Assembly: GCA_041550515.1 (NCBI GenBank)
Contig: JBFEOQ010000004.1
Span: 1,190-65,189 of the forward strand
Source of the DNA: Thermoplasmatota archaeon
GTDB taxonomy: Archaea; Thermoplasmatota; E2; DHVEG-1
Direction: 5' to 3'
Length of the DNA stretch: 64,000 nucleotides
The number at the start of each line of letters is the position of its first letter. The stretch's first letter is position 1. Position numbers and translations under genes: made by a program. Positions 17,935 to 43,213 of the stretch are shown here, piece by piece. A model generated the notes under the pieces. That model had not been told where the DNA came from. It saw only the letters and a program-made list of their open reading frames with translations, and did not search any database.

Positions 17935-18690
17935 ATGAGCAAGAAGGAACAGGTTCTATTAGAGGAATCTGAAGTTAAAAAAGCAGAAGATGTTGAAAAA
18001 AAAGCTGGAACTGTTGAAGTTTTTATCATGGGTAAAAGCTACAAAGTTCCTGCAGGTCTTACTATAATGAAGGCTTTGGAATACGCAGGCTATAGATATG
18101 TAAGGGGCTGCGGTTGCAGAGCTGGTTTTTGTGGTGCATGTTCTACGATTTATAGAATTGAAGATGAGCAAAAACTTGGTTTTGATCTAGCTTGTCAAAA
18201 AGTTGTTGAAGATAAAATGTATCTTGTTCAACTTCCTTTTGTTCCTGCAACAAAAGCTGAGTATGATATTGAGAAAATTAAGCCAATAGATAGTATTATT
18301 TTAGAAATATATCCTGAAATTGCTCGATGTGTTTCATGTAACACTTGTTCAAAATCTTGTCCTCAAGATATTGAGGTTATGAAATACATCCAAAGAGCAG
18401 TACGTGGTGAAATTTCAAAATGCGCTGAGATATCTTTTGACTGTATTCAATGTGGCTTGTGTGCTATGCGATGTCCAGCTGATATTAAGCATTATCATGT
18501 TTCTCAACTTGCACGAAGACTTCGGGGTAAATACCTTGATACAAAATCGAAGAACCTTGCAAAAAGACTGAAAGAAATTGACAATAGAAAATATGATGCA
18601 GAAATCGAAAAAATGATAAAAATGGGTAAAAACGATATTACAGAGATTTACAAGAAAAGAAGGATCGAAGCAGAAGAGGGAGGTGCTTAG
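17935..18690 (+). CDS. succinate dehydrogenase/fumarate reductase-type iron-sulfur subunit (2Fe-2S plus two 4-Cys clusters)
   Basis: 251 aa. It has a plant-ferredoxin-like CRAGFCGAC...LAC motif followed by CVSCNTCSKSCP and CIQCGLCAMRCP. It has no CCG domain. Confidence 0.7.
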   Translation: MSKKEQVLLEESEVKKAEDVEKKAGTVEVFIMGKSYKVPAGLTIMKALEYAGYRYVRGCGCRAGFCGACSTIYRIEDEQKLGFDLACQKVVEDKMYLVQLPFVPATKAEYDIEKIKPIDSIILEIYPEIARCVSCNTCSKSCPQDIEVMKYIQRAVRGEISKCAEISFDCIQCGLCAMRCPADIKHYHVSQLARRLRGKYLDTKSKNLAKRLKEIDNRKYDAEIEKMIKMGKNDITEIYKKRRIEAEEGGA

Positions 18691-20338
18691 AGTGAAATTG
18701 ATTGATGGCTACCCTGAATACATGAAGAAATCTATAAAACAGGTTGAGAAGAAACGTGAAAAAAATATGTCTGAACCTGTTAAACCAATGTCTCTTAAAG
18801 ACCGAGAAACGATGCTTACAAAATACCACCCAGATTATATGGAAGGGACTAAAAGAGAACTACGTGTCGGTATCGATAAAGGTCAATTGTTATACAACGG
18901 TCTGGTTGATCTCCTTGAAGCAAAACCCGTTTTAGATCCAAAAGATGTTGATCTTAGTAAAATCGATTATGATGTAGATTTGTTAATTATTGGTGGCGGT
19001 GGTGCTGGTACTGTTGCAGCATTATTTGCTTACGAATCTGGGGTGCTTTTAGACAAAATATTAATTGTTACTAAACTTCGTCATGGCGATGCCAATAGTA
19101 TGATGGCTCAGGGTGGCATTCAAGCAGCAGATCGTCCTGAAGACAACCCAGCTTTACATTATTTGGATATCTATGGTGGAGGGCATTTTACGAATAAACC
19201 TGAGCTTGCTCGTGCACTTGCACTTGATGCACCTGGAATAATTAAATGGCACGAGGAATTAGGAGTTATGTATGATCGCCATGAAGACGGTGAATTCCAA
19301 GAGTTATCTGGCGGTGGTACCTGTCGGAATCGTATGCACAGCTGCAAGGATTATTCTGGTATGGAAATTATGCGAAACATCCGGGATCAAGCTAGAAACT
19401 TGGAAATTCCTACTCTAGAGTTTTCTCCTGTTGCCGAGTTATTATTAGATGATAAAGGACAAGTTGCAGGTGGTATCGCATTCAATCTTGAAACATTTGA
19501 ATATTATGTAATACGCGCAAAAGCAACAATTCTTGCGACTGGTGGTAGTGGCAGATTACATTTAGCAAATTATCCAACAACAAACCACTATGGTGCCACT
19601 GGCGATGGATTAATTATGGCTTATCATGCAGGAGCAAATTTACTTGATTTAGATACAATTCAAATCCATCCAACAGGTGATGCATTTCCAGAACCTCTTG
19701 TTGGAATACTTTCAACAGAAAAAATCAGAGGATTAGGTGCAATACCAATAAACAAAAACGGTGATCCATTTGTTTTCCCACTTGAACCTCGTGATGTTGA
19801 GTCCGCATCTTTTATAAAAGAATGCAAAGAAAATCGTGGTATTGTTACACCAACAGGAATGCCAGGTGTGTGGCTTGATTCACCTATGATTAACATCATT
19901 CATGGTGAAGGAACAATAGAAACAAAACTAGCTGGTGAAGTTCGAAAGTTCAAGCGATTTGGAATCGATATGACAAAACAACCAATTTTGGTTTACCCTA
20001 CACTTCACTATCAGAATGGCGGAATTGAAATAAATGAAAAAACTGAGACAAGATTACCGGGATTGTTTGCAGCTGGAGAAGTTACAGGTGGCGTACATGG
20101 AAAAAACCGATTGATGGGAAATTCCCTGCTTGATTTCAATGTATTTGGTCGAAGATCTGGAATTTATGCGGCTAAATATATCAAAAAAGCTAAAGTTGGA
20201 AAATTAACACTTAATCATCTAGATAAATATAATAAAATGCTTGAGGAAGCAAAAATAAAACCAAAGAAAACAGCGCCGATAATTTTACCTGAATATCGTG
20301 GTGAAAAGACAATTGCTCGAGCATTGGATATATTCTAA
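18683..20338 (+). CDS. succinate dehydrogenase/fumarate reductase-type flavoprotein subunit (soluble)
   Basis: 551-aa ORF with the FAD motif LLIIGGGGAGTVAA, plus IQIHPTG and GLFAAGEVTGGVHGKNRLMGNSLLD. The track start is GTG 18683. The in-frame GTG at 18692 sits 8 nt after GGAGGTG and may be the real start. Confidence 0.8.
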   Translation: MLRVKLIDGYPEYMKKSIKQVEKKREKNMSEPVKPMSLKDRETMLTKYHPDYMEGTKRELRVGIDKGQLLYNGLVDLLEAKPVLDPKDVDLSKIDYDVDLLIIGGGGAGTVAALFAYESGVLLDKILIVTKLRHGDANSMMAQGGIQAADRPEDNPALHYLDIYGGGHFTNKPELARALALDAPGIIKWHEELGVMYDRHEDGEFQELSGGGTCRNRMHSCKDYSGMEIMRNIRDQARNLEIPTLEFSPVAELLLDDKGQVAGGIAFNLETFEYYVIRAKATILATGGSGRLHLANYPTTNHYGATGDGLIMAYHAGANLLDLDTIQIHPTGDAFPEPLVGILSTEKIRGLGAIPINKNGDPFVFPLEPRDVESASFIKECKENRGIVTPTGMPGVWLDSPMINIIHGEGTIETKLAGEVRKFKRFGIDMTKQPILVYPTLHYQNGGIEINEKTETRLPGLFAAGEVTGGVHGKNRLMGNSLLDFNVFGRRSGIYAAKYIKKAKVGKLTLNHLDKYNKMLEEAKIKPKKTAPIILPEYRGEKTIARALDIF

Positions 20339-20353
20339 AAATGGTGTAATAAA

Positions 20354-20614
20354 ATGATTGAAGTAAAAGACGACTGGTGTAAAGGATGCAACATCTGCAT
20401 AGATCGATGTCCCGTCGGTGCTTTGGAAGAATCTGATAGATTAAACAAAAAAGGGATTCGTCCACCTCAATTGAAAAAAGAAAATGAATGTAATTACTGC
20501 AGATACTGTGAGCTCATATGCCCAGATCTAGCACTGGCTGTAGTTGTAGATAAAGAAGTTAAAAAAGTTGAGAAAAAAATTCTACTAAGCCCGTTAGGAG
20601 GGAAAAAGAAATGA
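20354..20614 (+). CDS. korD: 2-oxoglutarate:ferredoxin oxidoreductase delta subunit (2x[4Fe-4S])
   Basis: 86 aa with CKGCNICIDRCP and CNYCRYCELICP. It is the first gene of a delta-alpha-beta-gamma operon. Confidence 0.75.
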   Translation: MIEVKDDWCKGCNICIDRCPVGALEESDRLNKKGIRPPQLKKENECNYCRYCELICPDLALAVVVDKEVKKVEKKILLSPLGGKKK

Positions 20615-21792
20615 AAGTTGAACGAGATCCTAAAAGGATACGCGAAGTTTTAGGAAAAAAAGTACAATTTATTCTAGGAGATATGGCCTGTGTTTATGGA
20701 GGACTTCTTGCAGGAGTCTCATTTTTTGGAGGATATCCAATAACTCCTGCGTCTGAAGTTGCTGAGGGAATGGCACGAAGGCTTCCAAGAATAGGTGGCA
20801 CATATATTCAGATGGAAGACGAAATTGGAAGTATTGCTGCAGTTATTGGTGCTGCATGGGGCGGGGCAAAATCAATGACAGCAACATCGGGTCCAGGTTT
20901 TTCTCTTATGATGGAAAACTATGGGTTTGCCTTTATGACTGAAACTCCTTGCGTAATAGTCAATGTTCAACGAACTGGCCCATCAACTGGACAACCAACA
21001 CTTGGAGCACAAGGTGATATGATGCAAGCTCGATGGGGGACACATGGTGATTATGAAGCCATTGCATTTGCACCAAGTACTGTTCAAGAATGTATGGATT
21101 TTACAATTGACGCATTTAATCTTTCAGAGAAATATCGCACCCCTACATTGGTAATGACTGATGGAGAAGTAGGACACCTTAGGGAGAGAATTGTTATTCC
21201 TGACGAAAAAGACTTGAAAATAATTGATAGAGTAACAGCAACAATTGATAAAAAGAAGTATATTCCATTCACTGAATCTCAAACTCGAAAAAGTAAGGTT
21301 CCTGATTTTGCAACTTTTGGTACAGGTTATCGTACATATGTTACAGGTCTTACTCATAACGAAAAAGGCTTTCCGGCAACGGATAAACAACCAGATCATG
21401 AACGACTTGTTAAAAGGATTACATCAAAAATCACTGATGATGCTGATAAACTTGTCATTGTAGAGACATTGAATCTTGATGATGCAGACATTGCTTTTGT
21501 AACATATGGTGCGACAGCTAGACCAGCGGAGTCAGCAATGGAAATAGGTAGAAAGAATGGTATAAAAGTTGGTCTTTTTCGTCTTAAACTTGTTTGGCCA
21601 TTCCCTGAAAAAGAGATAGCTAAACTGGCAAAAAAAGTAGATAAAATAATTGTGCCAGAAATGAACCTCGGTCAAATAGTCCATCCAGTTCGTGAGGCTG
21701 CTTGTGGTAATTGTGAAGTTATTTCAGCGCCAAAAATTGGTGGAGAAATGCACATTCCAAATGAACTTTTAAAATATCTGGAGGGAAAATAA
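20611..21792 (+). CDS. korA: 2-oxoglutarate:ferredoxin oxidoreductase alpha subunit
   Basis: 393 aa with GGYPITPASEV and MTATSGPGFSLM. The 2-oxoglutarate specificity is inferred from gene order and neighbourhood (Frd-like, SucCD), not proven. Confidence 0.8.
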   Translation: MKVERDPKRIREVLGKKVQFILGDMACVYGGLLAGVSFFGGYPITPASEVAEGMARRLPRIGGTYIQMEDEIGSIAAVIGAAWGGAKSMTATSGPGFSLMMENYGFAFMTETPCVIVNVQRTGPSTGQPTLGAQGDMMQARWGTHGDYEAIAFAPSTVQECMDFTIDAFNLSEKYRTPTLVMTDGEVGHLRERIVIPDEKDLKIIDRVTATIDKKKYIPFTESQTRKSKVPDFATFGTGYRTYVTGLTHNEKGFPATDKQPDHERLVKRITSKITDDADKLVIVETLNLDDADIAFVTYGATARPAESAMEIGRKNGIKVGLFRLKLVWPFPEKEIAKLAKKVDKIIVPEMNLGQIVHPVREAACGNCEVISAPKIGGEMHIPNELLKYLEGK

Positions 21793-21793
21793 G

Positions 21794-22684
21794 ATGGTAG
21801 AAATAAAAACCGCTGAGGAATTAAATAAAAAATTTCTCAGAGAGGGTATGTGGCCTACTATTTTCTGTAATGGTTGCGGCCATGGAGTGGTATTGGAATA
21901 CACTTTCTGGGCATTGGAAGAATTAGGTTGGGATATGAACAAAGTCATCTTTGCTTCAGGTATTGGATGTTCATCTAGGCTTCCGGGTTATATCAACGCA
22001 GATGGTTTGCATACAACACATGGAAGAGCAATTGCTTTTGCAACTGGTATAAAAGCAGCAAATCCTGATTTTAATATTATTGTTTTCACAGGTGATGGTG
22101 ATTGCTCAGGGATTGGTGGTAACCATTTTATTCATGCAGCCAGACGTAACATTGACATAACCGTTATTATGATTAATAATTTCATTTATGGAATGACCGG
22201 TGGTCAATTAGCACCAACAGCACCGCTTGGGAGTATTGCAACAACTGCTCCATATGGAAATATTGAGCATCCTTTTGATATATGTGAACTTGCAAAAGCC
22301 CTTGGTGCAAATTATGTAGCTAGATGGCCTGTTTCTCACCCGTATCAGCCTATAAAATCAGTAAAAGAAGGACTACAAAAGAAAGGTTTTTCCTTATTGG
22401 AGTTCCTTGCACCTTGCCCAACAGCATATGGACGACGAAACAAACTTGGAGATATCAAAAAACATTGGGCTTGGTATGACGATAACACCATCTTGATCGA
22501 GGATTATCAAAAAATTATGAACTATGGATCTGAAAAAGAAAAAGAACAAATAAAAGACAAAATGCAAATCGGTGTTTTCCAAGATATCCAGAAATCTGGA
22601 TTTTTTGAAGAATATGAAAAACTTGTGGATAGATTACAATCAAAAGAAAAAAAATCAGATAAAGCCAAAGGAGATAAAAAATGA
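21794..22684 (+). CDS. korB: 2-oxoglutarate:ferredoxin oxidoreductase beta subunit (TPP)
   Basis: 296 aa with FCNGCGHG and the TPP motif FTGDGDCSGIGGNH. Confidence 0.8.
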   Translation: MVEIKTAEELNKKFLREGMWPTIFCNGCGHGVVLEYTFWALEELGWDMNKVIFASGIGCSSRLPGYINADGLHTTHGRAIAFATGIKAANPDFNIIVFTGDGDCSGIGGNHFIHAARRNIDITVIMINNFIYGMTGGQLAPTAPLGSIATTAPYGNIEHPFDICELAKALGANYVARWPVSHPYQPIKSVKEGLQKKGFSLLEFLAPCPTAYGRRNKLGDIKKHWAWYDDNTILIEDYQKIMNYGSEKEKEQIKDKMQIGVFQDIQKSGFFEEYEKLVDRLQSKEKKSDKAKGDKK

Positions 22685-23223
22685 AAAAAGAAATTAGAAT
22701 CTGCGGTTTCGGAGGACAGGGAGTAATTCTTTCAGGTTTTATTATTGGAAAAGCCGCCTCGGTTTTTATGGATTATAACGCAGTACAGAGCCAATCTTAT
22801 GGGCCAGAAGCTCGTGGCGGAGCTGCTCGATCAGAAGTAATTGTATCTGATGAAAAAATTGGATATCCTCGGCCTCTTGGTGTTGATCTTCTTGTTGCTA
22901 TGTCACAGGAATCGTTTGATTCCTACCGTCATGATGTTACTAAGAATACCAAAATTGTTGTTGATCCAGATCTAGTAAAAAAACATGACATTGGTCAACC
23001 GGTTTACAAAGTTCATGCTCAACAAATAGCTGAAAGCCTGGGAAACAAAATTGTTACAAATATTGTAATGGTAGGAGCATCAATGGCGATATTTGGATTA
23101 TTAGATTTGGAAGCAGTCAAAAAATCTGTTCTTGATAGTGTCCCAAAAAGGTTTATTGATCTTAACGAAAAAGCTTTTGAAAAAGGAGTTGAGGCCGGGA
23201 AGAATGCCCTTAAAGACGTATAA
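22681..23223 (+). CDS. korG: 2-oxoglutarate:ferredoxin oxidoreductase gamma subunit
   Basis: 180 aa with the CGFGGQGVILSG motif. It has a 4-nt ATGA overlap with korB. Confidence 0.8.
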   Translation: MKKEIRICGFGGQGVILSGFIIGKAASVFMDYNAVQSQSYGPEARGGAARSEVIVSDEKIGYPRPLGVDLLVAMSQESFDSYRHDVTKNTKIVVDPDLVKKHDIGQPVYKVHAQQIAESLGNKIVTNIVMVGASMAIFGLLDLEAVKKSVLDSVPKRFIDLNEKAFEKGVEAGKNALKDV

Positions 23224-26200: not shown

Positions 26201-26419
26201 TGTGGACTTTGTGAATCAGCATGTGCTTATTCAGCAATTGAAATGAAGCCTAATCCCAAAGATCCAAGTAGATTAATTGCAGAAGTAAATAGAGCATTGT
26301 GTAAAGGTTGTGGTTCATGTGCAGCAGCATGCTTGTCAAGTGCTATTGAACAAAAGGGTTACAAGAGCAAACAGATAAATGTAATGATTGCAGCACTCTG
26401 TGAAAAGGGAGGCAGCTAG
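23204..26419 (+). CDS. hdrA: tandem-fused double HdrA (two heterodisulfide reductase subunit A-like FAD modules in one polypeptide)
   Basis: About 1071 aa from ATG 23204. The track ORF from 23132 overlaps korG. Module 1 has VLIVGAGISGMQAA, LDKTFPTNDCSIC, CTGCDDCAEVCP/CIGCGSCDRVCEP and CVGSRS..YCSRVCCMYA. Module 2 has IGVFVCHCGKNIA, LIIGGGISGMKASLA, PYCCRVGCG and CRGCGLCESACA/CKGCGSCAAACL. Confidence 0.85.
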   Translation: MPLKTYNKKIDHGLGIPLEDDYFYDEPEEIIENKEAPQLESIIKTLTQRAEKVKKRVIDTDVLIVGAGISGMQAALDIADKGYKVVIIDKTSTIGGAMVKLDKTFPTNDCSICTAAPKMVELSRHPNIELITYAGINSLDGKPGKFKASIWRKSKYVDPDKCTGCDDCAEVCPVDVVNPFDEKLSTRKAIYIEFPQAVPIIYTIDYDNCIGCGSCDRVCEPEAISFLEKSEDIQVNAGSVILATGFELFEPIEMRKEYGYGKYDNVITALQFERILSSFGPTEGKVKRPSDAKTPKSIGWIQCVGSRSEQQGFPYCSRVCCMYATKEASIAKEANPNIDINIYYMDIRAYGKDFQQYYDHAKDLGIKYIRGRPSSVYENKDKSITIKYKDTLTGEVKEDTVDMLVLSTAIKPNEENKRLGEALGIEVDENGFFKQQDLLTDPIQSSRDGVFLAGCIQGPKDIPDSVSMASGAAAKAVAPIKDHEKHIGKEFPPEKNVAGEKPRIGVFVCHCGKNIANYLDVKKVTEETKKLPNVEHAEHIMFVCSEDSCKKIKEAIEQKKLNRIIVAACSPRTHGGLFMDTLMEAGLNKYLFEMANIRNHCSWVHSDDWDAATDKAIKLVRSSVAKSRGLEALSEEEFSVYPATLIIGGGISGMKASLALADMGIKSIIIEKEKQLGGRLTNLHSMFPSDKKTEDILNPIINKIKKNKLISVMTDSELDELEGYIGNYKGKIKQKGKTKEIEFGTIIVATGFREIDLKGRYEYGKNENILSQTELETKLKTNKLKEPKNVVIINCAGAMDEERPYCCRVGCGVAIKNAKLISQKYPKSKIYMLYRDMRVFGKEEEEYYADVLKKHHVTMIRYPGDKKPEVILNKKDPKKGSVSVMVYDDILNEEMILPADLLVLTVNTEGGAETEKLKNMLKVPVDSAGFFIETHAKIKPLDFSTSGVYMCGAAHYPKNLVDSIAQAEGAASRAAIPIAQERMKGEGIVSEVIEDLCRGCGLCESACAYSAIEMKPNPKDPSRLIAEVNRALCKGCGSCAAACLSSAIEQKGYKSKQINVMIAALCEKGGS

Positions 26420-26845
26420 ATGGGTAAAAAAGTGGAAGGGAACCTTGATTTAAAATCACTGCAACTCAAAAAAGGGGAACTCCTTCAAGAAGTGGAAGAT
26501 TTGTGTGGAGAAAATCTTTTTGGTTGCTACCAGTGTGGAACTTGCACCGCTGGTTGCCCATTCATTGATGAAATGGATCTTTCTCCAGATGAAGTAATTA
26601 GATATGTAATATTAGATAGAAAGGAAGTTCTTAACTCAAAGACGATTTGGCTTTGTGCATCATGTTTTACATGTGCTGAGCGTTGCCCTCGTGATATTAA
26701 TATTACAAAGATTATGGAGGCTCTTCGTCAAATTATTCTTAGGAAAAAAATTGATAAAACAGATTTAAAGAAATTCTCAAAAGATGAAAAAGAAACAATA
26801 CCACAAATGGCATTTGTAAGCCTATTTAGAAAAAATATAGGGTAA
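26420..26845 (+). CDS. hdrC: heterodisulfide reductase subunit C
   Basis: 141 aa with CYQCGTCTAGCP and CASCFTCAERCP. The ATG directly follows the hdrA stop. Confidence 0.85.
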   Translation: MGKKVEGNLDLKSLQLKKGELLQEVEDLCGENLFGCYQCGTCTAGCPFIDEMDLSPDEVIRYVILDRKEVLNSKTIWLCASCFTCAERCPRDINITKIMEALRQIILRKKIDKTDLKKFSKDEKETIPQMAFVSLFRKNIG

Positions 26846-26850
26846 AAAAT

Positions 26851-27732
26851 ATGAAACTACTATACTACCCCGGTTGTACCCTCAAGACATCTGCAAAAAA
26901 TCTTGAGAAATCAGCTTTTGCTATAGCAGAAAAACTTGGTCACGAAATGGTTGAAATGGAGGATTGGACCTGCTGTGGCGTAGTTGCATCTTTAACCGAT
27001 GATGATCTGATGCATCATCTTGCACCACTTAGAAACCTGATACATGCTGAAGATGAAGGGGAAGAAACAATTGTTACACTATGTGATATGTGTTGCAACA
27101 CTTTAAAACAAACCAATCTCAGAGTAAAGGAGATTCCTGACGATCTTGAAACATTAAACTTATTCATGGATCGGGAAAATGATTACAAGGGAACAATCAA
27201 AATCATGCATTTCCTAGAGTTCTTACGTGATGAAGTTGGATTTAAAACTATTAAAAAAATGGTAAAAAATCCGCTCAAAGCCATGAAAATAATGCCTTAT
27301 TATGGATGTATGATGCTTCGTCCAAGGGAAGTAGCAATAGATGATGCAGAAGAACCAACAATAATGCAAGATCTTTTAAAGGCTCTTGGTGCAGAAGTAA
27401 TTGATAATCCTTTCAAAATTGAATGTTGTGGTTCATATCATACTATTGAAGACAAAAAACTTGTCTCAAATAGAGCAAATAAGATAACAAATTATGCAAT
27501 TGATCGCGGTAGCGATGCGATAATGCTATCTTGTCCTTTGTGTCGTTTCAATTTGGATGTTCGAGGAAAAGAAGCTGAGAAAATATATAACAATTATAAA
27601 CAGCTTCCGGTCTACTATTACACCCAACTTATAGCAGTTGCGTTGGGCTTGGATCCCAAAGTTTATGGATTTGATGAACATGCGGTGGATCCTGTCCTTT
27701 TGTTAAAGAAAAAGGGGGTATTTGAGAAATAA
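26851..27732 (+). CDS. hdrB: heterodisulfide reductase subunit B (two CCG domains)
   Basis: 293 aa with CCG motifs DWTCCGVV and IECCGSYH, plus YYPGC and YYGCM. Confidence 0.85.
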   Translation: MKLLYYPGCTLKTSAKNLEKSAFAIAEKLGHEMVEMEDWTCCGVVASLTDDDLMHHLAPLRNLIHAEDEGEETIVTLCDMCCNTLKQTNLRVKEIPDDLETLNLFMDRENDYKGTIKIMHFLEFLRDEVGFKTIKKMVKNPLKAMKIMPYYGCMMLRPREVAIDDAEEPTIMQDLLKALGAEVIDNPFKIECCGSYHTIEDKKLVSNRANKITNYAIDRGSDAIMLSCPLCRFNLDVRGKEAEKIYNNYKQLPVYYYTQLIAVALGLDPKVYGFDEHAVDPVLLLKKKGVFEK

Positions 27733-30731: not shown

Positions 30732-30744
30732 GGTGAAAAATAAA

Positions 30745-31187: not shown

Positions 31188-31616
31188 ATGAAAGAAAAAT
31201 TTGAACCAAATATTATAGGTTTTTTATGTAACTGGTGTTCGTATGCTGGTGCAGATCTTGCTGGAACTAGTAGAATTCAATATCCCCCAAATTTAAAAGT
31301 AATCCGAGTAATGTGTTCTGGTAGAGTAAATCCTATTTTTGTAATAAATGCACTTCAGCAAGGTGCAGATGGAGTACTCATTGGTGGTTGTCACCCGGGT
31401 GATTGTCACTATGAACGTGGTAATTATCTAGCAAGACGTCGAATTTCAGTATTAAAAAAACTTTTGGACTACACAGGTATTGATCCTAATAGAGTTAGGA
31501 TGACTTGGGTGTCTGCAGCTGAAGGACATAAATTTGCTGAAGTAGTAAAAGAAGTAACTGAGGATATAAGAAAATTAGGACCAATGCAACATTTCAAGAG
31601 GGGGAACAAATGGTAA
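31188..31616 (+). CDS. mvhD: methyl-viologen-reducing hydrogenase delta subunit (MvhD), copy 2
   Basis: 142 aa with the same motifs as copy 1. GGAGGT lies upstream of the ATG. Confidence 0.85.
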   Translation: MKEKFEPNIIGFLCNWCSYAGADLAGTSRIQYPPNLKVIRVMCSGRVNPIFVINALQQGADGVLIGGCHPGDCHYERGNYLARRRISVLKKLLDYTGIDPNRVRMTWVSAAEGHKFAEVVKEVTEDIRKLGPMQHFKRGNKW

Positions 31617-33627: not shown

Positions 33628-34463
33628 AGGAAAATCCTTATGAACCTTGGCTTGCAACTGTCGAAGAAATAAGAAAGGAAGCCGGTGGTCAAAGGCCAAT
33701 AAAAACGTTTAAACTGAAATTCAAAGATAAAAAAATTCAAGAAAATTTCTCATATGTTCCTGGACAATGTGCAATGGTTAGTCTACTTGGTATGGGAGAA
33801 TGTTTCTTTGCAATATCTTCTTCTCCAACTAAAAAAGATTTTATTGAAGTAAGTGTAATGAAACTCGGTAAGGTAACCACTGCATTGCATGAATTAGAAC
33901 CTGGTGATACAGTAGGTGTTAGAGGTCCTTATGGTAATTACTTTGATGTCAATGGTTGGAAAGGTAAGAACCTTATTTTTATAGGAGGTGGTATAGGTCA
34001 AGCACCTCTTAGGTCTCTTATCCAATACGTTGTCGATAAGAGAAAAGACTATGGTAAACTTGATATAATTTACGGTGCTCGTACATCAAAAGATATCAGT
34101 TACAAAAAAGAATTTGAAGAACTTGAGAAACGCAAAGATGTAAATGTTCATCTTTCAATTGATGTAAAAGAGAACGGTTGGAAAAAGTTTGTTGGATTCG
34201 TACCAGATAATCTATTAAAAGTTAAACCATCACCAAAGAATTCTATTGCAATCACCTGTGGTCCACCAATTATGATTAAGTTTGTAATTCAAAATTTAGA
34301 GAAGTTAGGTTTTACCGAAGATCAAATTTTTACAACTCTTGAAATGAGAATGAAATGTGGAATTGGAAAATGTGGTAGATGTAATATTGGGAATCTTTAT
34401 GTATGTAAAGATGGCCCAGTGTTTTCATACAAACAATTGAAAAATATTTATGGAGAAAGATAG
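33624..34463 (+). CDS. FAD/NAD(P)H-binding 2Fe-2S flavoprotein of the AsrB / sulfhydrogenase gamma (HydG) / FlxA type
   Basis: 279 aa with the ferredoxin-NADP-reductase-like layout (PGQCAMVS, IGGGIGQAPLRS) and C-terminal CGIGKCGRCNIG...VCKDGPVF. Confidence 0.75.
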   Translation: MKENPYEPWLATVEEIRKEAGGQRPIKTFKLKFKDKKIQENFSYVPGQCAMVSLLGMGECFFAISSSPTKKDFIEVSVMKLGKVTTALHELEPGDTVGVRGPYGNYFDVNGWKGKNLIFIGGGIGQAPLRSLIQYVVDKRKDYGKLDIIYGARTSKDISYKKEFEELEKRKDVNVHLSIDVKENGWKKFVGFVPDNLLKVKPSPKNSIAITCGPPIMIKFVIQNLEKLGFTEDQIFTTLEMRMKCGIGKCGRCNIGNLYVCKDGPVFSYKQLKNIYGER

Positions 34464-34472
34464 GTGATACCT

Positions 34473-36416
34473 ATGAAAATAGGAGTTTATGTTTGTCAAT
34501 GTGGAATTAACATTGCGCATACAGTAGACACTGAACGGGTTGTAGATCTTGTAAAGAATCTGCCAAATGTTGAAATTGCTCGTGACTATAAGTATATGTG
34601 CTCTGATCCTGGTCAAGAGCTAATAAAAAAGGATATCAATGAGATCAATCTTGATCGAGTTGTTGTTGCAAGTTGTTCTCCACGTATGCATGAGCCGACA
34701 TTTCGAAAAGTTCTTGAAGAATCAGGAATGAATCCATATTTTTTTGAAATGGTAAATTTAAGAGAGCAATGCTCATGGGTACATGAAGATAAAGAACAAG
34801 CTACTCTTAAATCAGTTGACCTTATTTCTGGAGCTGTTACACGTGCAACATTTTTGGAACCTCTCGAGAAGAAAAAAGTAAGTGTCATTCCAAAGGCACT
34901 TGTAATAGGTGGAGGTATTGCAGGTATTCAAGCAGCTTTGGGGATTGCAGATAAAGGTTTCAAGACATATCTAGTTGAGCGTAGCCCTAGTATTGGTGGT
35001 CGTATGGCTCAACTTGATAAAACATTTCCCACTCTTGATTGCTCTGCCTGTATTCTAACTCCTAAAATGGTTGATGTTGCTCGTCATCCAAATATTGAAC
35101 TTATGACCTATTCTGAAATAGAGAGTGTTGATGGATATATTGGTAATTTTAAAGTAAAAATAAAGAAGAAACCTAGATACATTGACATAGAAAAATGTGT
35201 GGGTTGCGGTAATTGTGCTGAAGCTTGTAGACTTCATGCTAGAATTCAAAATGAATTTGATATGAATCTGAGTAAACGTAGTGCAATTTATGTTCCATTT
35301 CCGCAGGCGGTACCCCTAAAATATACGATTGATCCTGATAAGTGCATTACTTTAAAAACTGGTAAATGTGGCGATCATGCTTTATGTATCGAAGCCTGTG
35401 ATAGAGATGCAATTAATTTTGATCAAAAAGAAGAAATTATAGAAATCGAAGTTGGAACAATTGTTGTAGCAACTGGTTTTGATTTATTTGATGCCAAAGA
35501 AAAACCAGAGTATGGTTATGGCAAGTATGAGAATGTGATTACTGGTTTAGAATTTGAAAGACTTGTTTCTGCATCAGGACCTACAAGTGGACACGTTGAA
35601 ATTAATGGTAAAGAACCTAAAAATGTTGTTTTCATCCAATGTGTTGGATCACGTGATAAAAAAACTAACGAATATTGCTCTCGTGTTTGTTGTATGTACA
35701 CAGCAAAACAGGCACATATGATTAAAGAAAAATTACCTAATGCAAATTTAATAATTTACTATACGGATGTTAGAGCTTTTGGTAAAGGTTTTGAAGAGTT
35801 TTATAACAGAGTACAAGGTGAAGGTATCATTTATAGACGTAGAGAGCTTGATGATTTAATTCAAATTAATAAGAAAGGGGATAAAACTATTATAAAAGCT
35901 GAAGGTCATCCTGATATCGAAGCTGATCTTGTTATTCTTGCAACAGGTATTATCCCACGTAAAGATTCAAAGGACTTCGCTAGAATTTTAAATATTAATC
36001 AAAGTGCTGATGGATTCTTTTTAGAGGCTCATCCAAAACTTAGACCAGTTGACACATTTACTGAAGGTATTTTCCTTGCAGGTTGTTGTCAGAGTCCTAA
36101 AGATATACCTGATGCTGTTGCTCAAGCGAGTGGGGCAGCGATTAGAGCATCTGAACCACTTGCAGCAGGAGAGGTTGAAGTAGAAGCGATTTCATCATAT
36201 ATCGATGAAGAATTATGTAGTGGTTGTAGAATTTGTGAAGATCTTTGTGCATACAATGCCTTGGAGTTTGATCTGAAAGAAAAAGTGATGCGAGTAAATG
36301 ATGTTATGTGTAAAGGTTGTGGAAGTTGTGCATCAGCTTGTCCAACTGGTGCTATTTCGATGAGACATTTCAATCTGAAACAAATACTCGCACAAATAGG
36401 AGGATTGACAAAATGA
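34473..36416 (+). CDS. hdrA: heterodisulfide reductase subunit A (canonical single-module form)
   Basis: 647 aa from ATG 34473 (AGGTGA lies upstream; the track uses GTG 34464). It has IGVYVCQCGINIA, LVIGGGIAGIQAA, LDKTFPTLDCSAC, an inserted Fd domain (CVGCGNCAEAC...CIEACD), CVGSRD..YCSRVCCMYT and a C-terminal CSGCRICEDLC/CKGCGSCASACP. Confidence 0.9.
   Translation: MKIGVYVCQCGINIAHTVDTERVVDLVKNLPNVEIARDYKYMCSDPGQELIKKDINEINLDRVVVASCSPRMHEPTFRKVLEESGMNPYFFEMVNLREQCSWVHEDKEQATLKSVDLISGAVTRATFLEPLEKKKVSVIPKALVIGGGIAGIQAALGIADKGFKTYLVERSPSIGGRMAQLDKTFPTLDCSACILTPKMVDVARHPNIELMTYSEIESVDGYIGNFKVKIKKKPRYIDIEKCVGCGNCAEACRLHARIQNEFDMNLSKRSAIYVPFPQAVPLKYTIDPDKCITLKTGKCGDHALCIEACDRDAINFDQKEEIIEIEVGTIVVATGFDLFDAKEKPEYGYGKYENVITGLEFERLVSASGPTSGHVEINGKEPKNVVFIQCVGSRDKKTNEYCSRVCCMYTAKQAHMIKEKLPNANLIIYYTDVRAFGKGFEEFYNRVQGEGIIYRRRELDDLIQINKKGDKTIIKAEGHPDIEADLVILATGIIPRKDSKDFARILNINQSADGFFLEAHPKLRPVDTFTEGIFLAGCCQSPKDIPDAVAQASGAAIRASEPLAAGEVEVEAISSYIDEELCSGCRICEDLCAYNALEFDLKEKVMRVNDVMCKGCGSCASACPTGAISMRHFNLKQILAQIGGLTK
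34588..34741 (+). repeat. near-identical nucleotide block shared by the two adjacent hdrA genes (partner 36527-36680)
   Basis: By hand alignment at constant offset 1939 there are 4 mismatches in 154 nt, and 34648-34741 is a 94-nt perfect match to 36587-36680. Confidence 0.85.
34986..35093 (+). repeat. near-identical nucleotide block shared by the two adjacent hdrA genes (partner 36925-37032)
   Basis: By hand alignment at offset 1939 there are 2 mismatches in 108 nt. Confidence 0.85.
35531..35701 (+). repeat. near-identical nucleotide block shared by the two adjacent hdrA genes (partner 39148-39318)
   Basis: By hand alignment at offset 3617 there are 6 mismatches in 171 nt, including perfect runs of 63 and 71 nt. 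Confidence 0.85.
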
Positions 36417-40051: not shown

Positions 40052-40074
40052 AATAAAAAAGGAGGTATTGAAAA

Positions 40075-40554
40075 ATGGGTATTGATTTTAATGCAGATGA
40101 AGTTTTTGAAATGGCCGAACAAATCGAAAGAAATGGTGCAAAATTCTACAGATCAACAGCTGAAAAAATTAAAGAAACTAATAAAAAACAACTTTTAGCA
40201 AATCTAGCAAAAATGGAGGATGAACATGAAAAAACATTTAGAGTATTAAGATCTGAACTTTCCACTGATGAAAAAATTCAAACAACTTTTGATCCTGAAG
40301 GAGATTCAGAACGTTATCTACGTGCGCTTGCAGATACTAGGGTTTTTTATGAAAAAGAGGTTATCCCTACATCGTTGGAAGATATTCTCAAATTTGCTAT
40401 TACCATCGAAAAGGATTCAATAGTTTTCTACTTAGGTTTAAAAGATATTGTTCCAGTGCATCTTGGTAAACAAAAACTTGATGATATTATAAAAGAAGAA
40501 ATGGGTCATATTCGCCTTCTTAGTAAGGAATTAATCGAACTCAATAAATATTGA
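40075..40554 (+). CDS. rubrerythrin/ferritin-like di-iron four-helix-bundle protein
   Basis: 159 aa with two ExxH motifs (MEDEHEKTF, KEEMGHIRL) and paired upstream Glu residues (MAEQIERNGAKFY, IEKDSIVFY). Confidence 0.65.
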   Translation: MGIDFNADEVFEMAEQIERNGAKFYRSTAEKIKETNKKQLLANLAKMEDEHEKTFRVLRSELSTDEKIQTTFDPEGDSERYLRALADTRVFYEKEVIPTSLEDILKFAITIEKDSIVFYLGLKDIVPVHLGKQKLDDIIKEEMGHIRLLSKELIELNKY

Positions 40555-40602
40555 TTTAATAGGAAAATTTAGGTAATAATAAAATAATATGATGTATGAA
40601 TT

Positions 40603-42030
40603 ATGTTAAAAGAAATGTTAAAAGATTTGAAAAAGTTGAATGGAGAGAATTTCAAAACAGATACAGCTGTATGTTATTCTTATTCTTCAGATGCAAGTAT
40701 TTACCGACATTTACCTGATGCAGTTGTACGTCCAAAGAATACAAAAAATATTGTTGATATTGTTAGACTTGCGAATAAATATAAGATACCATTAATCCCT
40801 AGAGGTGGAGGTACTGGACTTTGTGGAGGTGCTGTTGCTATAAACGGAGGCATCATTATTGATATGCAGTACATGAATAAAGTAAAAGAAATTCAACCTG
40901 AAAATTTATATTGTATAGTCGAACCAGGTGTTATATATGACGAATTAAATCGCCAATTAAAAAACTATAAATATACATTTCCAGGATCTCCAGGTAGTGG
41001 AGAAGCAGCAACTATTGGAGGTATGGTTGCAACTAATGCATCAGGTATGCGAGCTGTAAAATATGGTGCTACTCGTGATTATGTTCTTGGTTTGGAAATT
41101 GTCCTTCCTACAGGAGAAATTATGAAATGTGGTACGCATACCTTGAAAAACAGTAGTGGTTATCAAATTGAAAAGTTAATAGTTGGTTCTGAAGGTACTT
41201 TGGGAATAATCACAGAAATTACCTTAAAAATCATTCCATTACCAAAGAGCCAGATAACTGCACTTGTAACATTTGATGAATTGGTATCTGCAGGTCAAGC
41301 AATCTCAAATATTATTGCATATCCAATTATTCCATCTTCAATGGAGATAATGGATAGTTTGAGTATTGTTGCAGTAAACAAAGGAACTGATGCAAAACTT
41401 CCAGATGTTGAAGCAATACTTATTATCGAGTGTGATGGACCCATCGAAGAAGTTCGTCGAGAAATGTCTATTGTCGAAAAAATATGTAGAGAAAGTGGAG
41501 CGAGAGATATAACTATATCTGAAAAACCAGAAGTATTTAATAAATGGCATAAAGCACGAAAATCTGTTTTACCTGCATTAGGAAAATATCGCCCGGATTT
41601 GAAGATTGTTTCTTTAGTCGATGACATGGCAGTTCCAATTTCAAAGATTGCCCAGTTGATTATAGCTATTAAGAAGATAAGTAAAAATAACAATATTCTA
41701 ATCACTACATATGGACATGCAAGTGACGGTAACCTTCATTCAAAAGTCTTACTCGATCCAACCAATAAAGATGATTGGAAACGAGCTGAAATAACCGTTA
41801 AACAAGTATATGATGCTGTTTTGAAATTAGATGGCACAGTTTCTGGTGAACATGGTGTGGGGATATCAAAAGCTCCCTTTATGATAAAAGAAAGGAAAAA
41901 TGCTATAGGTACTATGAAAGCAATAAAAAAAGTATTTGATCCAAATAATATTATGAATCCCGGGAAAACGTTTGAATGGGATAAAGAATATATTATTACA
42001 AATCTTCGATATCCTGCAAAGGTGGACTAA
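40603..42030 (+). CDS. FAD-linked oxidase, GlcD / D-lactate dehydrogenase family
   Basis: 475 aa with PRGGGTGLCGGAV and the C-terminal GTVSGEHGVGISK...DPNNIMNPGK. Confidence 0.85.
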   Translation: MLKEMLKDLKKLNGENFKTDTAVCYSYSSDASIYRHLPDAVVRPKNTKNIVDIVRLANKYKIPLIPRGGGTGLCGGAVAINGGIIIDMQYMNKVKEIQPENLYCIVEPGVIYDELNRQLKNYKYTFPGSPGSGEAATIGGMVATNASGMRAVKYGATRDYVLGLEIVLPTGEIMKCGTHTLKNSSGYQIEKLIVGSEGTLGIITEITLKIIPLPKSQITALVTFDELVSAGQAISNIIAYPIIPSSMEIMDSLSIVAVNKGTDAKLPDVEAILIIECDGPIEEVRREMSIVEKICRESGARDITISEKPEVFNKWHKARKSVLPALGKYRPDLKIVSLVDDMAVPISKIAQLIIAIKKISKNNNILITTYGHASDGNLHSKVLLDPTNKDDWKRAEITVKQVYDAVLKLDGTVSGEHGVGISKAPFMIKERKNAIGTMKAIKKVFDPNNIMNPGKTFEWDKEYIITNLRYPAKVD

Positions 42031-42031
42031 C

Positions 42032-43213
42032 ATGGTTCCAAATATTAAAGGTGATAAGTTAAAAGAGTTTTTTGATCAAACGATGTTATGCACCTCGTGT
42101 GGATATTGTAAGTCGGTTTGTCCAACCTTCAAATCAACTCTTTGGGAAAATAATTCTGCACGCTCAAAAATTATGTTAGCCTATGGTCTTATTAAGGGAG
42201 AAATTAAACCTGATGATTCAATAGTTCAATCCATTTTTGAATGTACAGGATGCGAAGATTGCATGAGAAGATGCCCATCGAAAGTAGAAACTATTAAAAT
42301 AATTATGGCGACTAGAAGCGAGCTTGCTAACCTAAATTTAATACCTGATAATATAAGAATTGCTTTAGATAATATAAAAAAATCAGGTAATCCATTAGGG
42401 GAACTAAAAGAAAAACGCATTGATTTTATTCCAGAAAAAGCTAAAAAAAGAATTGGAAAAGGCGCTGAAGTTTTACTTTACCTTGGGTGTACAACCTCAT
42501 TCCAAGAAATGAAAATGGCAAAAAGTATCTTTGAAGTTATGGAACGTAGTGGTATTGATTATACATTTTTAGGGAAAGAAGAACCATGTTGCGGATTCTT
42601 GAATTATCTTTCAGGATATAATATAATGGAATTTGGTAAACAAATGATAAAAGCAATGAATACACTTAAACTAAAACCAAAAACAATTGTGACATCATGC
42701 CCAGGATGTTTTAGAACATTTAATATTATTTATCCGAAAGAAGGTGTATACTTAGATGTTAATGTTAAACATATTACTGAATTCCTTAAAGAACTTATAG
42801 AAAATGGAAATCTCATCGTAAGTAAAAAATTGGAAGGTAAAGTATTATATCATGATCCTTGTGATCTTGGAAGAAATTGTAATTATTATGATCAACCAAG
42901 AAAATTATTATCCCATTTCACTGATGTCCAGGAATTTGAATACAATAGAGATGAGGCGCATTGCTGTGGTGGTGGAGGAGGTCTTCAATCAACAAATTAT
43001 GCATTAACAACCGATATTGCTAAAAAAAGAATAAAAGAAGCATTAGATTTGAACGCGGATATGATTGTAACAGCTTGTCCTGCATGTAAATCAACATTAT
43101 TAAATGCAGCATTTGAGATGAGGGCAGAGTTTGGAAAAAAGATAAAAATAAAAGATATAGTTGAGATTGTTGAACGAAATACTATTAAAAAGGATTCTGC
43201 CTTTTCTACTTGA
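42032..43213 (+). CDS. Fe-S oxidoreductase, GlcF / HdrD-like (2x[4Fe-4S] plus two CCG domains)
   Basis: 393 aa from ATG 42032, 1 nt after the glcD-like stop. It has CTSCGYCKSVCP and CTGCEDCMRRCP, with CCG motifs EPCCGFLN and AHCCGGGGGLQ. Confidence 0.85.
   Translation: MVPNIKGDKLKEFFDQTMLCTSCGYCKSVCPTFKSTLWENNSARSKIMLAYGLIKGEIKPDDSIVQSIFECTGCEDCMRRCPSKVETIKIIMATRSELANLNLIPDNIRIALDNIKKSGNPLGELKEKRIDFIPEKAKKRIGKGAEVLLYLGCTTSFQEMKMAKSIFEVMERSGIDYTFLGKEEPCCGFLNYLSGYNIMEFGKQMIKAMNTLKLKPKTIVTSCPGCFRTFNIIYPKEGVYLDVNVKHITEFLKELIENGNLIVSKKLEGKVLYHDPCDLGRNCNYYDQPRKLLSHFTDVQEFEYNRDEAHCCGGGGGLQSTNYALTTDIAKKRIKEALDLNADMIVTACPACKSTLLNAAFEMRAEFGKKIKIKDIVEIVERNTIKKDSAFST

Follow-up and report, generated by a model that had tools for sequence, protein, structure and literature searches.

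Several described systems form the background to the gene cluster reported here. These are the MvhAGD-HdrABC complex of hydrogenotrophic methanogens (5ODC, 8RVU, 7BKB), the TfrAB thiol:fumarate reductase of Methanothermobacter and the type-E/MFR enzymes SdhABE, and the GlcD/Dld-II dehydrogenases with an HdrD-like subunit together with LctD of LctBCD (7QH2). An FlxABCD-HdrABC NADH dehydrogenase/heterodisulfide reductase of Desulfovibrio was reportedly described by Ramos et al. in 2015 (cited in PMC12054007). Methanogens run the branch of the tricarboxylic acid (TCA) cycle from fumarate to 2-oxoglutarate with Tfr, Hdr/Mvh and a 2-oxoacid oxidoreductase (KOR), using diffusible CoM-S-S-CoB (the heterodisulfide of coenzymes M and B) and ferredoxin. 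Tandem (type II) and GltD-inserted (type III) HdrA proteins were catalogued in 2025 for methane-metabolising archaea, with no biochemistry (PMC12054007), and methanogen Hdr-Mvh/Vhu-Fwd(Fmd) supercomplexes keep a ferredoxin-dependent CO2-fixing enzyme with the bifurcating Hdr, such that low-potential electrons are used at once (PMC13518236, PMC13580544). Parts related to these systems occur side by side in a 64,000-nucleotide stretch of Thermoplasmatota DNA (assembly GCA_041550515.1, contig JBFEOQ010000004.1, positions 1,190 to 65,189; hereafter the window), where an open reading frame (ORF) listing and a junction script define 22 consecutive plus-strand ORFs, g01-g22, at 17935-43213. With a little less than even confidence, we lean towards the explanation that this cluster is a genuine, lineage-conserved array of an uncultured archaeon resembling MBG-D (Marine Benthic Group D)/Thermoprofundales, in which two HdrA-based bifurcating or confurcating assemblies are encoded together with enzymes that would use their outputs, and in which fumarate may serve as the high-potential acceptor.

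The evidence that bears most directly on fumarate concerns the first two genes, which encode a succinate dehydrogenase/fumarate reductase (Frd)-like Fe-S protein (g01) and a fumarate-reductase-family flavoprotein (g02). Relatives were collected by a scan of one genome per species, and all 22 proteins were compared by tblastn with the fetched loci (cited here by L numbers); the loci used for co-occurrence counts had been retrieved with MvhA or HdrA queries. Among the loci with an HdrB at least 40% identical to g09, 14 of 21 carry g01/g02 and the other seven are cut before the expected position. None of the 45 loci with an HdrB below 40% identity to g09 carries the pair. In metagenome-assembled genomes (MAGs) labelled Methanofastidiosa and Thermococci (L068, L069, L071), the gene order is HdrA-MvhD-MvhG-MvhA-HdrC-HdrB-g01-g02, and in L068 a fumarase adjoins this operon. 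A self-contained KorDABG-MvhD-FlxCBA-HdrA-HdrC-HdrB-g01-g02 operon is present in L146, and HdrC-HdrB-g01(-g02) adjacency also occurs in L137 and L155. These neighbourhoods indicate that the Frd-like pair is a specific partner of this HdrCB subfamily. The original prediction had listed a fumarate-reductase-like enzyme as one more enzyme appended to a redox hub; the enzyme is indeed present, but its strict co-occurrence with one HdrB subfamily speaks against the status of an appendage.

The features of g02 are consistent with a fumarate-reducing enzyme of an unusual type. Its motifs HPTG, TEKxR, EPRD, HYQNGG and NRLMGNSL are present, and alignment to SdhA (7D6V, 1NEK) and FrdA structures recovers the proton-donor Arg and the dicarboxylate-site His and Arg. 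These catalytic residues are invariant in four distant homologues. At the position of E. coli SdhA His45, the site of the covalent 8-alpha-histidyl FAD, and at its mycobacterial equivalent, g02 has an Asn that is conserved in L166, L146 and L068. In complex II enzymes (succinate:quinone and quinol:fumarate reductases), fumarate reduction survives the loss of the covalent FAD bond, whereas succinate oxidation does not. The protein also has a conserved N-terminal extension of ~95 amino acids and a shortened C-terminus, both of which are kept in the homologues from these three loci. Because a search with the extension recovered only 267 representatives among 1.84e9, g02 appears to define a narrow, distinct subfamily. 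Its partner g01 contains a 2Fe-2S motif and two CxxCxxCxxxCP [4Fe-4S] motifs whose cysteines are kept in the same three loci, and carries no CCG domain.

Two other identities were considered for g02. An L-aspartate oxidase is less likely, given that NadB models score 231 bits against 311 bits for the best curated model, TfrA, and that the protein is translationally coupled to an SdhB-like Fe-S subunit. AprA, which would recall the AprAB/Qmo systems where HdrA-like proteins accompany an FAD_binding_2 protein, was rejected because no AprA model is among the top matches.

Of the described systems, Methanothermobacter TfrAB and the type-E/MFR SdhABE enzymes are closest to this part of the cluster: g02 finds TfrA as its best match, g01 resembles the TfrB N-terminus, and HdrC, HdrB and g22 resemble the middle and C-terminal parts of TfrB. 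In g09, the scores for HdrB (167 bits) and for the type-E fumarate-reductase subunit SdhE (148 bits) are nearly equal. Unlike in TfrAB, however, the functions of TfrB seem to be split here over g01, HdrC and HdrB, g02 has its extension and a truncated C-terminus, and the genomic linkage is to HdrA, Mvh and Flx. Scores are also far under the Tfr cut-offs. The match of g02 to the TfrA equivalog NF004900 (residues 96-522 on positions 6-426 of the 546-position model) reaches 311 against a cut-off of 718, and g01 is without fused CCG domains, so the pair was not classed as TfrAB. The CCG domains sit instead on the separate proteins g09 and g22. Since g01 has none, the pair by itself has no means of thiol oxidation of the TfrB kind.

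This last point bears on an alternative that we judge unlikely, namely that the cluster is a generic hub in which HdrB reduces a thiol/disulfide carrier (for example lipoyl-GcvH/LbpA-like or a low-molecular-weight thiol), as happens in methanogens and in the sHdr and DsrC systems, and the Frd pair and KOR are operon companions connected by diffusible carriers. Such a role would suit g09, in which Pfam CCG matches in two stretches, and which aligns over its full length to HdrB structures (143 bits) with both CCG motifs and all 10 cysteines retained in the alignment to 9SFI_C. Two GcvH-like proteins, two lipoate-protein ligases and a radical-SAM gene are encoded at 51.5-61.4 kb. There are also precedents, because GcvH, which is encoded with SdhA next to HdrBC in Culexarchaeia, was suggested there as another substrate of Hdr (PMC9723716), and a thiol:fumarate reductase syntenic with an Hdr-like complex in Mnemosynellales was read as part of a thiol cycle (PMC9635834). 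The GcvH and lipoate genes of the window, however, are on the other strand and at least 8 kb away, and this linkage is not seen in L164 or L165. The strict HdrB-g01-g02 co-occurrence and the direct adjacency in four other lineages suggest a physical partnership.

Under the explanation that we prefer, a first assembly would comprise g07-g13 and g01-g02. The Mvh-type [NiFe] hydrogenase would hand electrons from H2 via MvhD1 to the tandem HdrA, from which a high-potential branch would run through HdrC, HdrB and g01 to g02, with its non-covalent FAD, where fumarate would be reduced to succinate. Fumarate would thereby replace the CoM-S-S-CoB of methanogens, and the arrangement would amount to a ‘split thiol:fumarate reductase’ connected to HdrA. 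The tie between this HdrB subfamily and the Frd-like pair likewise suggests that the acceptor is probably not CoM-S-S-CoB. The low-potential branch would reduce ferredoxin, which KorDABG could spend on carboxylating succinyl-CoA to 2-oxoglutarate, with electrons possibly passing directly to KOR. The succinyl-CoA would be made from the same succinate by the divergently encoded succinyl-CoA synthetase. Conversion of fumarate to 2-oxoglutarate needs one high-potential and one low-potential electron pair, which are the two outputs of an H2- or NAD(P)H-fed bifurcation; in our scheme, both outputs of one bifurcation would drive consecutive steps of the reductive TCA branch. A second assembly (g14-g20) would use MvhD2/FlxD, the FlxCBA-like proteins, g18 and g19 to couple NAD(P)H to the H2, ferredoxin and fumarate pools of the first assembly, with the di-iron protein g20 as a likely part of this module. 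The variable 3' module g21-g22 would add an input from D-lactate or another 2-hydroxyacid.

Several observations weigh against this explanation. No curated Frd or Tfr model cut-off is reached by g02, and the 2-oxoglutarate-specific models of KOR also score below their cut-offs. Retrieval with MvhA or HdrA queries cannot show how frequently g01-g02 occur without Hdr, such that only the direction from HdrB to g01-g02 was covered by the counts, and L167 encodes g01 and a truncated g02 with no Hdr nearby. In the window itself, KOR and HdrA stand between g01-g02 and HdrCB, which are therefore not directly adjacent. Because g09 keeps all cysteines for disulfide chemistry, a thiol/disulfide carrier may still be its true substrate, and two GcvH-like proteins and lipoate ligases are found 8-18 kb downstream. 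MBG-D archaea are regarded as fermenters of peptides; in such a metabolism, KOR would work in the oxidative direction and H2 could be a product of the hydrogenase. More generally, what the model adds to the sequence is guilt by association.

The possible oxidative direction defines a second alternative, also unlikely in our estimate, in which KOR oxidises 2-oxoglutarate derived from amino acids and yields reduced ferredoxin, HdrA confurcates electrons from ferredoxin and NAD(P)H or lactate to H2 at the Mvh hydrogenase, and fumarate is at most a side sink. According to their published description, Thermoprofundales degrade peptides and obtain reduced ferredoxin through Kor, Por and Ior (PMC6461988), and the neighbouring succinyl-CoA synthetase would yield ATP if run that way. 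A second 2-oxoacid oxidoreductase is encoded at 6.4-9.4 kb. The nearest solved homologue of g21 is LctD of a confurcating lactate dehydrogenase, and that of g11 is a reversible bifurcating NiFe hydrogenase (7T2R). Fermentative H2 evolution would nevertheless leave two things unexplained: why HdrCB is tied to a flavoprotein of the fumarate-reducing type, in which Asn replaces the covalent His, and why a fumarase is encoded nearby in the window and in L068. This alternative differs from the scheme that we prefer in direction more than in architecture, and most of that scheme would hold under it as well. The original prediction had described KOR as ferredoxin-consuming, for which we find no support; sequence does not reveal a direction of electron flow.

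The KOR genes themselves encode a four-subunit enzyme of the 2-oxoacid:acceptor oxidoreductase family, with Pfam matches to POR_N, PFOR_II, TPP_enzyme_C and POR. For the beta and delta subunits, the best models are of 2-oxoglutarate types but fall below their cut-offs (280 against 364, and 53.5 against 125, respectively). KorDABG is probably a 2-oxoglutarate:ferredoxin oxidoreductase. KOR genes next to HdrA were also found in L146 and L157. This arrangement recalls the methanogen Hdr-Mvh-Fwd supercomplexes, but the candidate low-potential client is here KOR rather than formylmethanofuran dehydrogenase, and the association (in the window, L146 and L157) is a genomic one. A physical Mvh-Hdr-Frd-Kor supercomplex, in which H2 bifurcation would deliver electrons to fumarate and, via KorD directly, to succinyl-CoA carboxylation with no free carriers, strikes us as very unlikely. 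Among the top in situ transcripts of Thermoprofundales MAGs are those for a GltD-like HdrA, another HdrA, 2-oxoglutarate synthase alpha and a hydrogenase (PMC6461988).

A 25-kb super-operon converging on four HdrA modules had been predicted. Its HdrA content stands, but the count does not: alignment of g18, g19 and both halves of g07 resolves three HdrA proteins, of which g07 is a tandem. The N-terminal half of g07 retains FAD (GAGISG at 66), a DCSxC motif and an inserted ferredoxin domain, but neither the N-terminal Cys domain nor the C-terminal ferredoxin domain. The C-terminal half has the N-terminal Cys domain, FAD (GGGISG at 648) and the C-terminal ferredoxin domain, and is without DCSxC and the inserted ferredoxin domain. 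This complementary loss leaves one complete domain set spread over two flavin modules, which suggests that g07 is a fused, sub-functionalised equivalent of an HdrA dimer. In g19, a GltD/NfnB-like unit for FAD (GGGPAG) and NAD(P)H (GGGNAA) lies within the inserted ferredoxin domain, between CTGCGECFNGC and CSECFECVQTC. Most probably, the three proteins form two dimer-equivalents, with g07 serving HdrCB and Mvh, and g18 plus g19 serving MvhD2 and the Flx-like proteins.

Both unusual proteins have counterparts among the catalogued HdrA types (PMC12054007), to which g07 corresponds in its two thioredoxin-reductase-like FAD domains and g19 in the insertion of GltD at the ferredoxin-reducing inserted domain. 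They differ from these in several respects. The host is not a methane-metabolising organism, both types occur in one cluster with a type I HdrA, and the nucleotide motif of g19 is GGGNAA (GxGxxA), in contrast to the GxGxxG reported for the methanogen examples (PMC12054007). An extra 2x[4Fe-4S] ferredoxin of g19 (residues ~513-576) is also absent from its aligned ‘Heimdall’- and Chloroflexi-labelled homologues.

Assignments for all genes were made with Pfam and NCBIfam profiles followed by alignment to PDB structures, and every family named in the original prediction was upheld by the two profile collections. The cluster shares with MvhAGD-HdrABC the Mvh-type [NiFe] subunits, MvhD, the protease, HdrC and the two-CCG HdrB. 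An HdrA domain set (g18), an HdrB with two CCG motifs and 10 cysteines, and an HdrC with 4Fe-4S domain matches are all encoded. The large subunit g11 has, in translation, the motifs RICGVCPVAH and DPCFACATH followed by a 26-residue C-terminal tail, and its top PDB matches, 7T2R_D (388 bits) and MvhA 5ODC_F (381 bits), score well above groups 3a, 3b and 1. Its context is that of group 3c, with MvhG and MvhD co-encoded and HdrCB immediately upstream. Differences from the methanogen complex are that the host belongs to a lineage regarded in the literature as non-methanogenic, that the HdrA adjacent to HdrCB is a tandem fusion, and that NCBIfam equivalog cut-offs are not reached.

The genes g14-g17 have the domain architectures of FlxABCD, with hdrA (g18) immediately downstream. 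Compared by architecture with the Desulfovibrio Flx-Hdr system, the MvhD-like g14, the Fe-S proteins g15 and g16 and the FAD/NAD(P)H/2Fe-2S protein g17 lie beside hdrA. The order is here D-C-B-A, however, and what comes next is a pair of HdrA genes, one with the GltD insertion, and no HdrBC of its own. The nearest curated matches are sulfhydrogenase beta and gamma and AsrAB.

An assembly chimera is ruled out by synteny in many independent assemblies, including the complete chromosomes CP070836 (L010) and CP070724 (L011). An identical MvhA with the same neighbours is present on a 12-kb contig of GCA_041556475.1, and the closest relatives, at 75-94% identity, are uncultured Thermoplasmatales and Thermoplasmatota MAGs. 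Genes g02-g13 are colinear, at 72-94% protein identity, in at least eight species (L002, L004, L009, L010, L011, L014, L015, L033), and g14-g19 come next in L002, L006, L010, L011 and L062; the block up to g20 is kept in at least five. At the 5' side, L166 carries the succinyl-CoA synthetase and TrmB-like regulator genes on the opposite strand, then g01, g02, KorDABG, the tandem HdrA, HdrC, HdrB and MvhG. At the 3' side, L164 and L165 carry MvhD2, the Flx-like C/B/A genes, HdrA, a 1212-amino-acid HdrA::GltD and the rubrerythrin-like gene, followed by unrelated genes. Recurrence of the juxtaposition in independent assemblies, complete chromosomes included, identifies it as a conserved lineage trait rather than an artefact, and it is not unique to this contig. 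It had been called unusual, which is true only by comparison with textbook systems; in this archaeal lineage it is the norm.

A homologue of g20 with 81% identity is annotated ‘rubrerythrin [Thermoplasmatales archaeon SG8-52-3]’, and the SG8-52-3 genome has been treated as a Thermoprofundales (MBG-D) MAG (PMC6461988). In the Thermoplasmatota relatives (L162-L165), this gene follows g19 without exception. Only g21-g22 are specific to the species of the window itself, being present in L162 and L163 and missing at this position in L164 and L165. In L162 (GCA_975851925.1, g20 identical), a geranylgeranyl (GG)-reductase-like gene stands almost directly after g22 (window 43214-50521 compared with L162 4558-4930). 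By this layout, the ~7-kb stretch of the window that holds orf231, a DUF1667/Pyr_redox_2/DAO-BFD trio, LarA and fumarase is absent or relocated there; the difference could be a strain-level indel or reflect poor assembly, as many L162 genes look truncated. In L165, a group-3b-like sulfhydrogenase (alpha, delta, gamma, beta; 10482-14397, minus strand) points towards the cluster and meets its end immediately beyond the rubrerythrin-like gene, and LplA, HdrC-like, HdrB-like and giant HdrA::GltD-like (1478 amino acids) genes are located further downstream.

The description of the cluster as modular agrees with the variation among relatives, which rearrange, add or exchange modules at the borders that had been predicted. 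The predicted modules were likewise recovered: one for H2 (MvhGA, protease, MvhD), two for NAD(P)H (g17 and the GltD insert of g19), one for 2-hydroxyacids (g21-g22), KOR and the Frd-like pair. A paralogous GlcD (~46% identity) and an Fer4-MvhD fusion are inserted between g13 and g14 in L002, L006, L010, L011, L164 and L165, and in L005, L009, L012, L015 and L016 g14-g19 are swapped for GlcD-like, HdrD-like, HdrC-like, HdrB-like and HdrA::GltD-like genes. The predicted 2-hydroxyacid dehydrogenase is thus a recurrent member of the cluster that is supplied by non-orthologous genes. Three Heimdallarchaeota-labelled loci (L027, L029, L035) have the order MvhG-MvhA-MvhD2-FlxCBA-HdrA-HdrA::GltD-protease-MvhD1 and no HdrBC, which places the Flx-like module directly on MvhGA, unlike in Desulfovibrio. 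In L112, g14-g18 adjoin MvhD1-MvhG-MvhA. From these contexts and that of L146, MvhD1 appears to travel with the hydrogenase (MvhGA, protease) and MvhD2 with the Flx-like genes.

The MvhA proteins of MAGs labelled Candidatus Heimdallarchaeota (L026-L029, L035, L066) are ~80% identical to those of Thermoplasmatota, with the Flx/HdrA/HdrA::GltD module attached. This likeness points to a recent transfer between phyla or to contigs placed in the wrong bin. Scanned as a single protein against metagenomes, g21 gave no matches; a second metagenome scan used the HdrA::GltD alignment as its query.

The g21-g22 pair resembles GlcD/Dld-II dehydrogenases with an HdrD-like subunit and LctD, and a lactate racemase gene is located 4 kb downstream. 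It is unlike LctBCD in that no Etf subunits are encoded at g21-g22, and its conservation is the lowest in the array. The assignment of g22 as GlcF-like was right at the level of family, but the protein is closer to HdrD and the C-terminal two thirds of TfrB (157 bits) than to GlcF (71 bits). A second GlcD-like FAD oxidase and an HdrD-like protein (4Fe-4S and two CCG) are encoded at 57993-60846 on the minus strand, preceded by two UbiA prenyltransferases (56016-57969).

The layout on which these comparisons rest agrees with the original description of 22 co-directional genes with a largest gap of 48 nucleotides (nt). ATGA overlaps are present at 20611, 22681, 28774, 33624 and 36413, and TAGATG is present at 26417-26422, as had been noted. 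Two starts were refined: ATG 23204 for g07, which gives a 20-nt overlap with g06 and is also the start in the public annotation of L001, in line with the N-termini of relatives, and ATG 42032 for g22, 1 nt past the g21 stop. With these starts, the gaps from g01 to g22 are -8, 15, -4, 1, -4, -20, 0, 5, 34, -4 and 14 nt for the first 11 junctions and 1, 20, -7, 11, -4, 0, -4, 23, 48 and 1 nt for the remaining 10. GGAGG-type ribosome-binding sites precede most cluster genes. Runs of same-strand genes across the window contain 3, 5, 5, 1, 4, 22, 4, 4, 9 and 1 genes. With a same-strand probability of 0.75 per junction, 21 such junctions would have a probability of ~0.002 (0.75^21). Only 59% of the same-strand gaps outside the cluster are 48 nt or less (0.59^21, ~2e-5), which makes the packing of the cluster exceptional for this genome; it exceeds chance within the window.

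A single transcript would fit this packing, and a third alternative, which seems quite unlikely, holds that the array consists of several independent operons with internal promoters, in which Frd, KOR, Mvh-Hdr, Flx-Hdr and lactate dehydrogenase are separately regulated and do not physically converge. Relatives do remodel at module borders, by insertions between g13 and g14, swaps of g14-g19, loss of g21-g22 and, in L167, occurrence of g01-g02 alone. The 34- and 48-nt gaps coincide with module borders, and archaeal promoters may sit within upstream coding sequence. However, 15 of the 21 junctions overlap or span 5 nt or less, including those between modules (g06/g07, -20; g12/g13, +1; g17/g18, 0; g18/g19, -4), and the order g02-Kor-HdrA-HdrCB-Mvh is kept across 72-94% protein identity in at least eight species. 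No run of five or more T residues occurs in the intergenic gaps of the cluster, and the first intergenic oligo-T tract, TTTTTTGTTTT, which begins at 43280, follows g22 as a candidate archaeal terminator.

Upstream of g01, alignment with L166 and L167 shows a conserved block containing CCAAAAAGTTTATAATATATTA, a putative promoter. It is followed by a possible 31-codon leader ORF that starts with TTG behind the strong Shine-Dalgarno (SD) sequence GGGAGGAG and stops 3 nt ahead of the g01 ATG. Counterparts of 40 and 43 codons are found at the same position in L166 and L167, one of which overlaps g01 as ATGA, and the three peptides show little amino-acid conservation. Either a regulatory leader or one more small gene, the 23rd, could be encoded here. 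The window is AT-rich (~30% GC). The GC content of the cluster is 0.32-0.385, compared with 0.25-0.33 in the flanks, and the cluster has a steady positive GC skew. Horizontal transfer was considered for its higher GC, which the amino-acid composition of Fe-S proteins and flavoproteins explains equally well.

The positions of the cluster genes, transcription signals and assigned flanking genes are collected in Table 1. The divergent arrangement of succinyl-CoA synthetase, regulator and g01 is shared with L166, and L167 has the regulator alone. LarA and fumarase lie 4-7 kb downstream of the cluster. A second 2-oxoacid:ferredoxin oxidoreductase (POR/VOR-type alpha, beta and gamma) is encoded at 6399-9351 on the minus strand, where a 265-nt gap may hide a delta subunit. 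On the same strand, 44264-47349 holds the DAO/BFD, Pyr_redox_2 and DUF1667 trio, which resembles anaerobic glycerol-3-phosphate or proline dehydrogenase. Downstream of fumarase, 50522-55693 encodes a GG-reductase-like FAD protein, LplA with DUF116, a radical-SAM protein, a GcvH-like protein and a second LplA. The second GcvH-like gene is at 60997-61431, and beyond it is a multihaem cytochrome c gene (61670-63139, plus strand). These lipoate-assembly genes resemble the LbpA/lipoate sets of sulfur-oxidising Hdr-like systems and might supply a disulfide carrier for HdrB or HdrD. Two minus-strand ORFs, of 878 amino acids (10072-12708) and 231 amino acids (43406-44101), had no Pfam match at E<=1e-5, and no tRNA or Rfam match was found in the window.

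Table 1. Genes and sequence signals of the redox cluster and its flanks (positions in the window).
Feature	Position	Strand	Basis or remark
Succinyl-CoA synthetase alpha	14553-15419	-	Pfam
Succinyl-CoA synthetase beta	15420-16526	-	Pfam
TrmB/HTH-like regulator	16545-17657	-	Pfam
Promoter-like block CCAAAAAGTTTATAATATATTA, BRE (B recognition element)/TATA-like, then GGGAGGAG	17779-17831	+	Within 277-nt AT-rich divergent intergenic region
Possible leader ORF, 31 codons	17836-17931	+	TTG start behind GGGAGGAG
g01, SdhB/FrdB-like Fe-S protein, 251 aa (amino acids)	17935-18690	+	Pfam Fer2/Fer4; weak match to TfrB N-terminus
g02, fumarate-reductase-family flavoprotein	18683-20338	+	FAD_binding_2, 219 bits; TfrA model best curated
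g03, KorD	20354-20614	+	Pfam
g04, KorA	20611-21792	+	Pfam; NCBIfam PRK08659, 558 (cut-off 411)
g05, KorB	21794-22684	+	Pfam
g06, KorG	22681-23223	+	Pfam
g07, tandem ‘type II’ HdrA, 1071 aa	23204-26419	+	NCBIfam HdrA2, 1010 bits in 3 stretches
g08, HdrC-like	26420-26845	+	NCBIfam HdrC, 86 (below cut-off 160); Fer4_8/Fer4_17 matches
g09, HdrB-like	26851-27732	+	NCBIfam HdrB, 167 (below cut-off 345); MFR SdhE, 148 bits, below cut-off
g10, MvhG/VhuG small subunit	27767-28777	+	VhuG, 219 bits
g11, MvhA-type [NiFe] large subunit	28774-30234	+	VhuA best NCBIfam model, 429 (below cut-off 800)
g12, HycI-type maturation protease	30249-30731	+	Adjoins g11
g13, MvhD1	30733-31167	+	Pfam FlpD, 194/196 bits with g14
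g14, MvhD2 (FlxD equivalent)	31188-31616	+	Pfam FlpD, 194/196 bits with g13
g15, FlxC-like, FrhB_C + 4Fe-4S	31610-32593	+	Pfam/NCBIfam
g16, FlxB-like/sulfhydrogenase beta-like	32605-33627	+	Sulfhydrogenase I beta 9NEZ_B, 189 bits
g17, FlxA-like/sulfhydrogenase gamma-like FAD-NAD(P)H-2Fe2S protein	33624-34463	+	Pfam/NCBIfam
g18, canonical ‘type I’ HdrA, 650 aa, all four domains	34464-36416	+	~800 bits end to end against 8RVU, 5ODC
g19, ‘type III’ HdrA, 1212 aa	36413-40051	+	NCBIfam HdrA2, 876 bits; GltD-type models, 373-488 bits
g20, small rubrerythrin/ferritin-like di-iron protein	40075-40554	+	Pfam Rubrerythrin, 42.7 bits; E...ExxH twice, no rubredoxin domain
g21, FAD-linked D-lactate/2-hydroxyacid dehydrogenase, GlcD/LctD-like	40603-42030	+	glcD, 436 (below cut-off 568); PDB LctD 7QH2, 289 bits
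g22, HdrD-like Fe-S protein, 2x4Fe-4S + 2 CCG	42032-43213	+	TfrB C-terminal part, 157 bits
Intergenic oligo-T tract TTTTTTGTTTT, candidate terminator	43280-43290	+	T run 43280-43285; first after g22
LarA lactate racemase	47440-48696	+	Pfam
Class I fumarase alpha + beta	49063-50484	+	Pfam

The component families, the tandem and GltD-inserted HdrA proteins, and the Flx-Hdr, Mvh-Hdr and GlcD-HdrD combinations have all been described already, and the cluster itself is present unremarked in many public MAGs. Our literature search found no description of three features: that one distinct Frd-like subfamily is specifically linked, in a conserved manner, to one distinct HdrCB subfamily, that KOR is included repeatedly, and that both are concatenated with inputs of the Mvh and Flx types in a sediment archaeon that is abundant; nor did it return a paper with the phrase ‘bifurcating fumarate reductase’. 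In the Thermoprofundales genome paper, frdAB were stated not to be found (PMC6461988), so the g01-g02 pair was apparently overlooked there, and the present assignment would correct that published absence.

MBG-D/Thermoprofundales are among the most abundant archaea of marine sediments, and homologues of the genes described here are among their most expressed (PMC6461988). The strict tie of one HdrCB subfamily to an Frd-type flavoprotein gives a testable candidate, fumarate, for the acceptor of Hdr in organisms without coenzymes M and B. If true, fumarate would be a new high-potential acceptor for HdrA-based electron bifurcation, and a Mvh-Hdr-Frd-Kor supercomplex, should it exist, would be a carbon-assimilation analogue of Hdr-Mvh-Fwd and the first fumarate-dependent HdrABC. 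The proposed scheme would then show how H2, NAD(P)H, ferredoxin and a branch of the TCA cycle are balanced in energy-limited sediment archaea.

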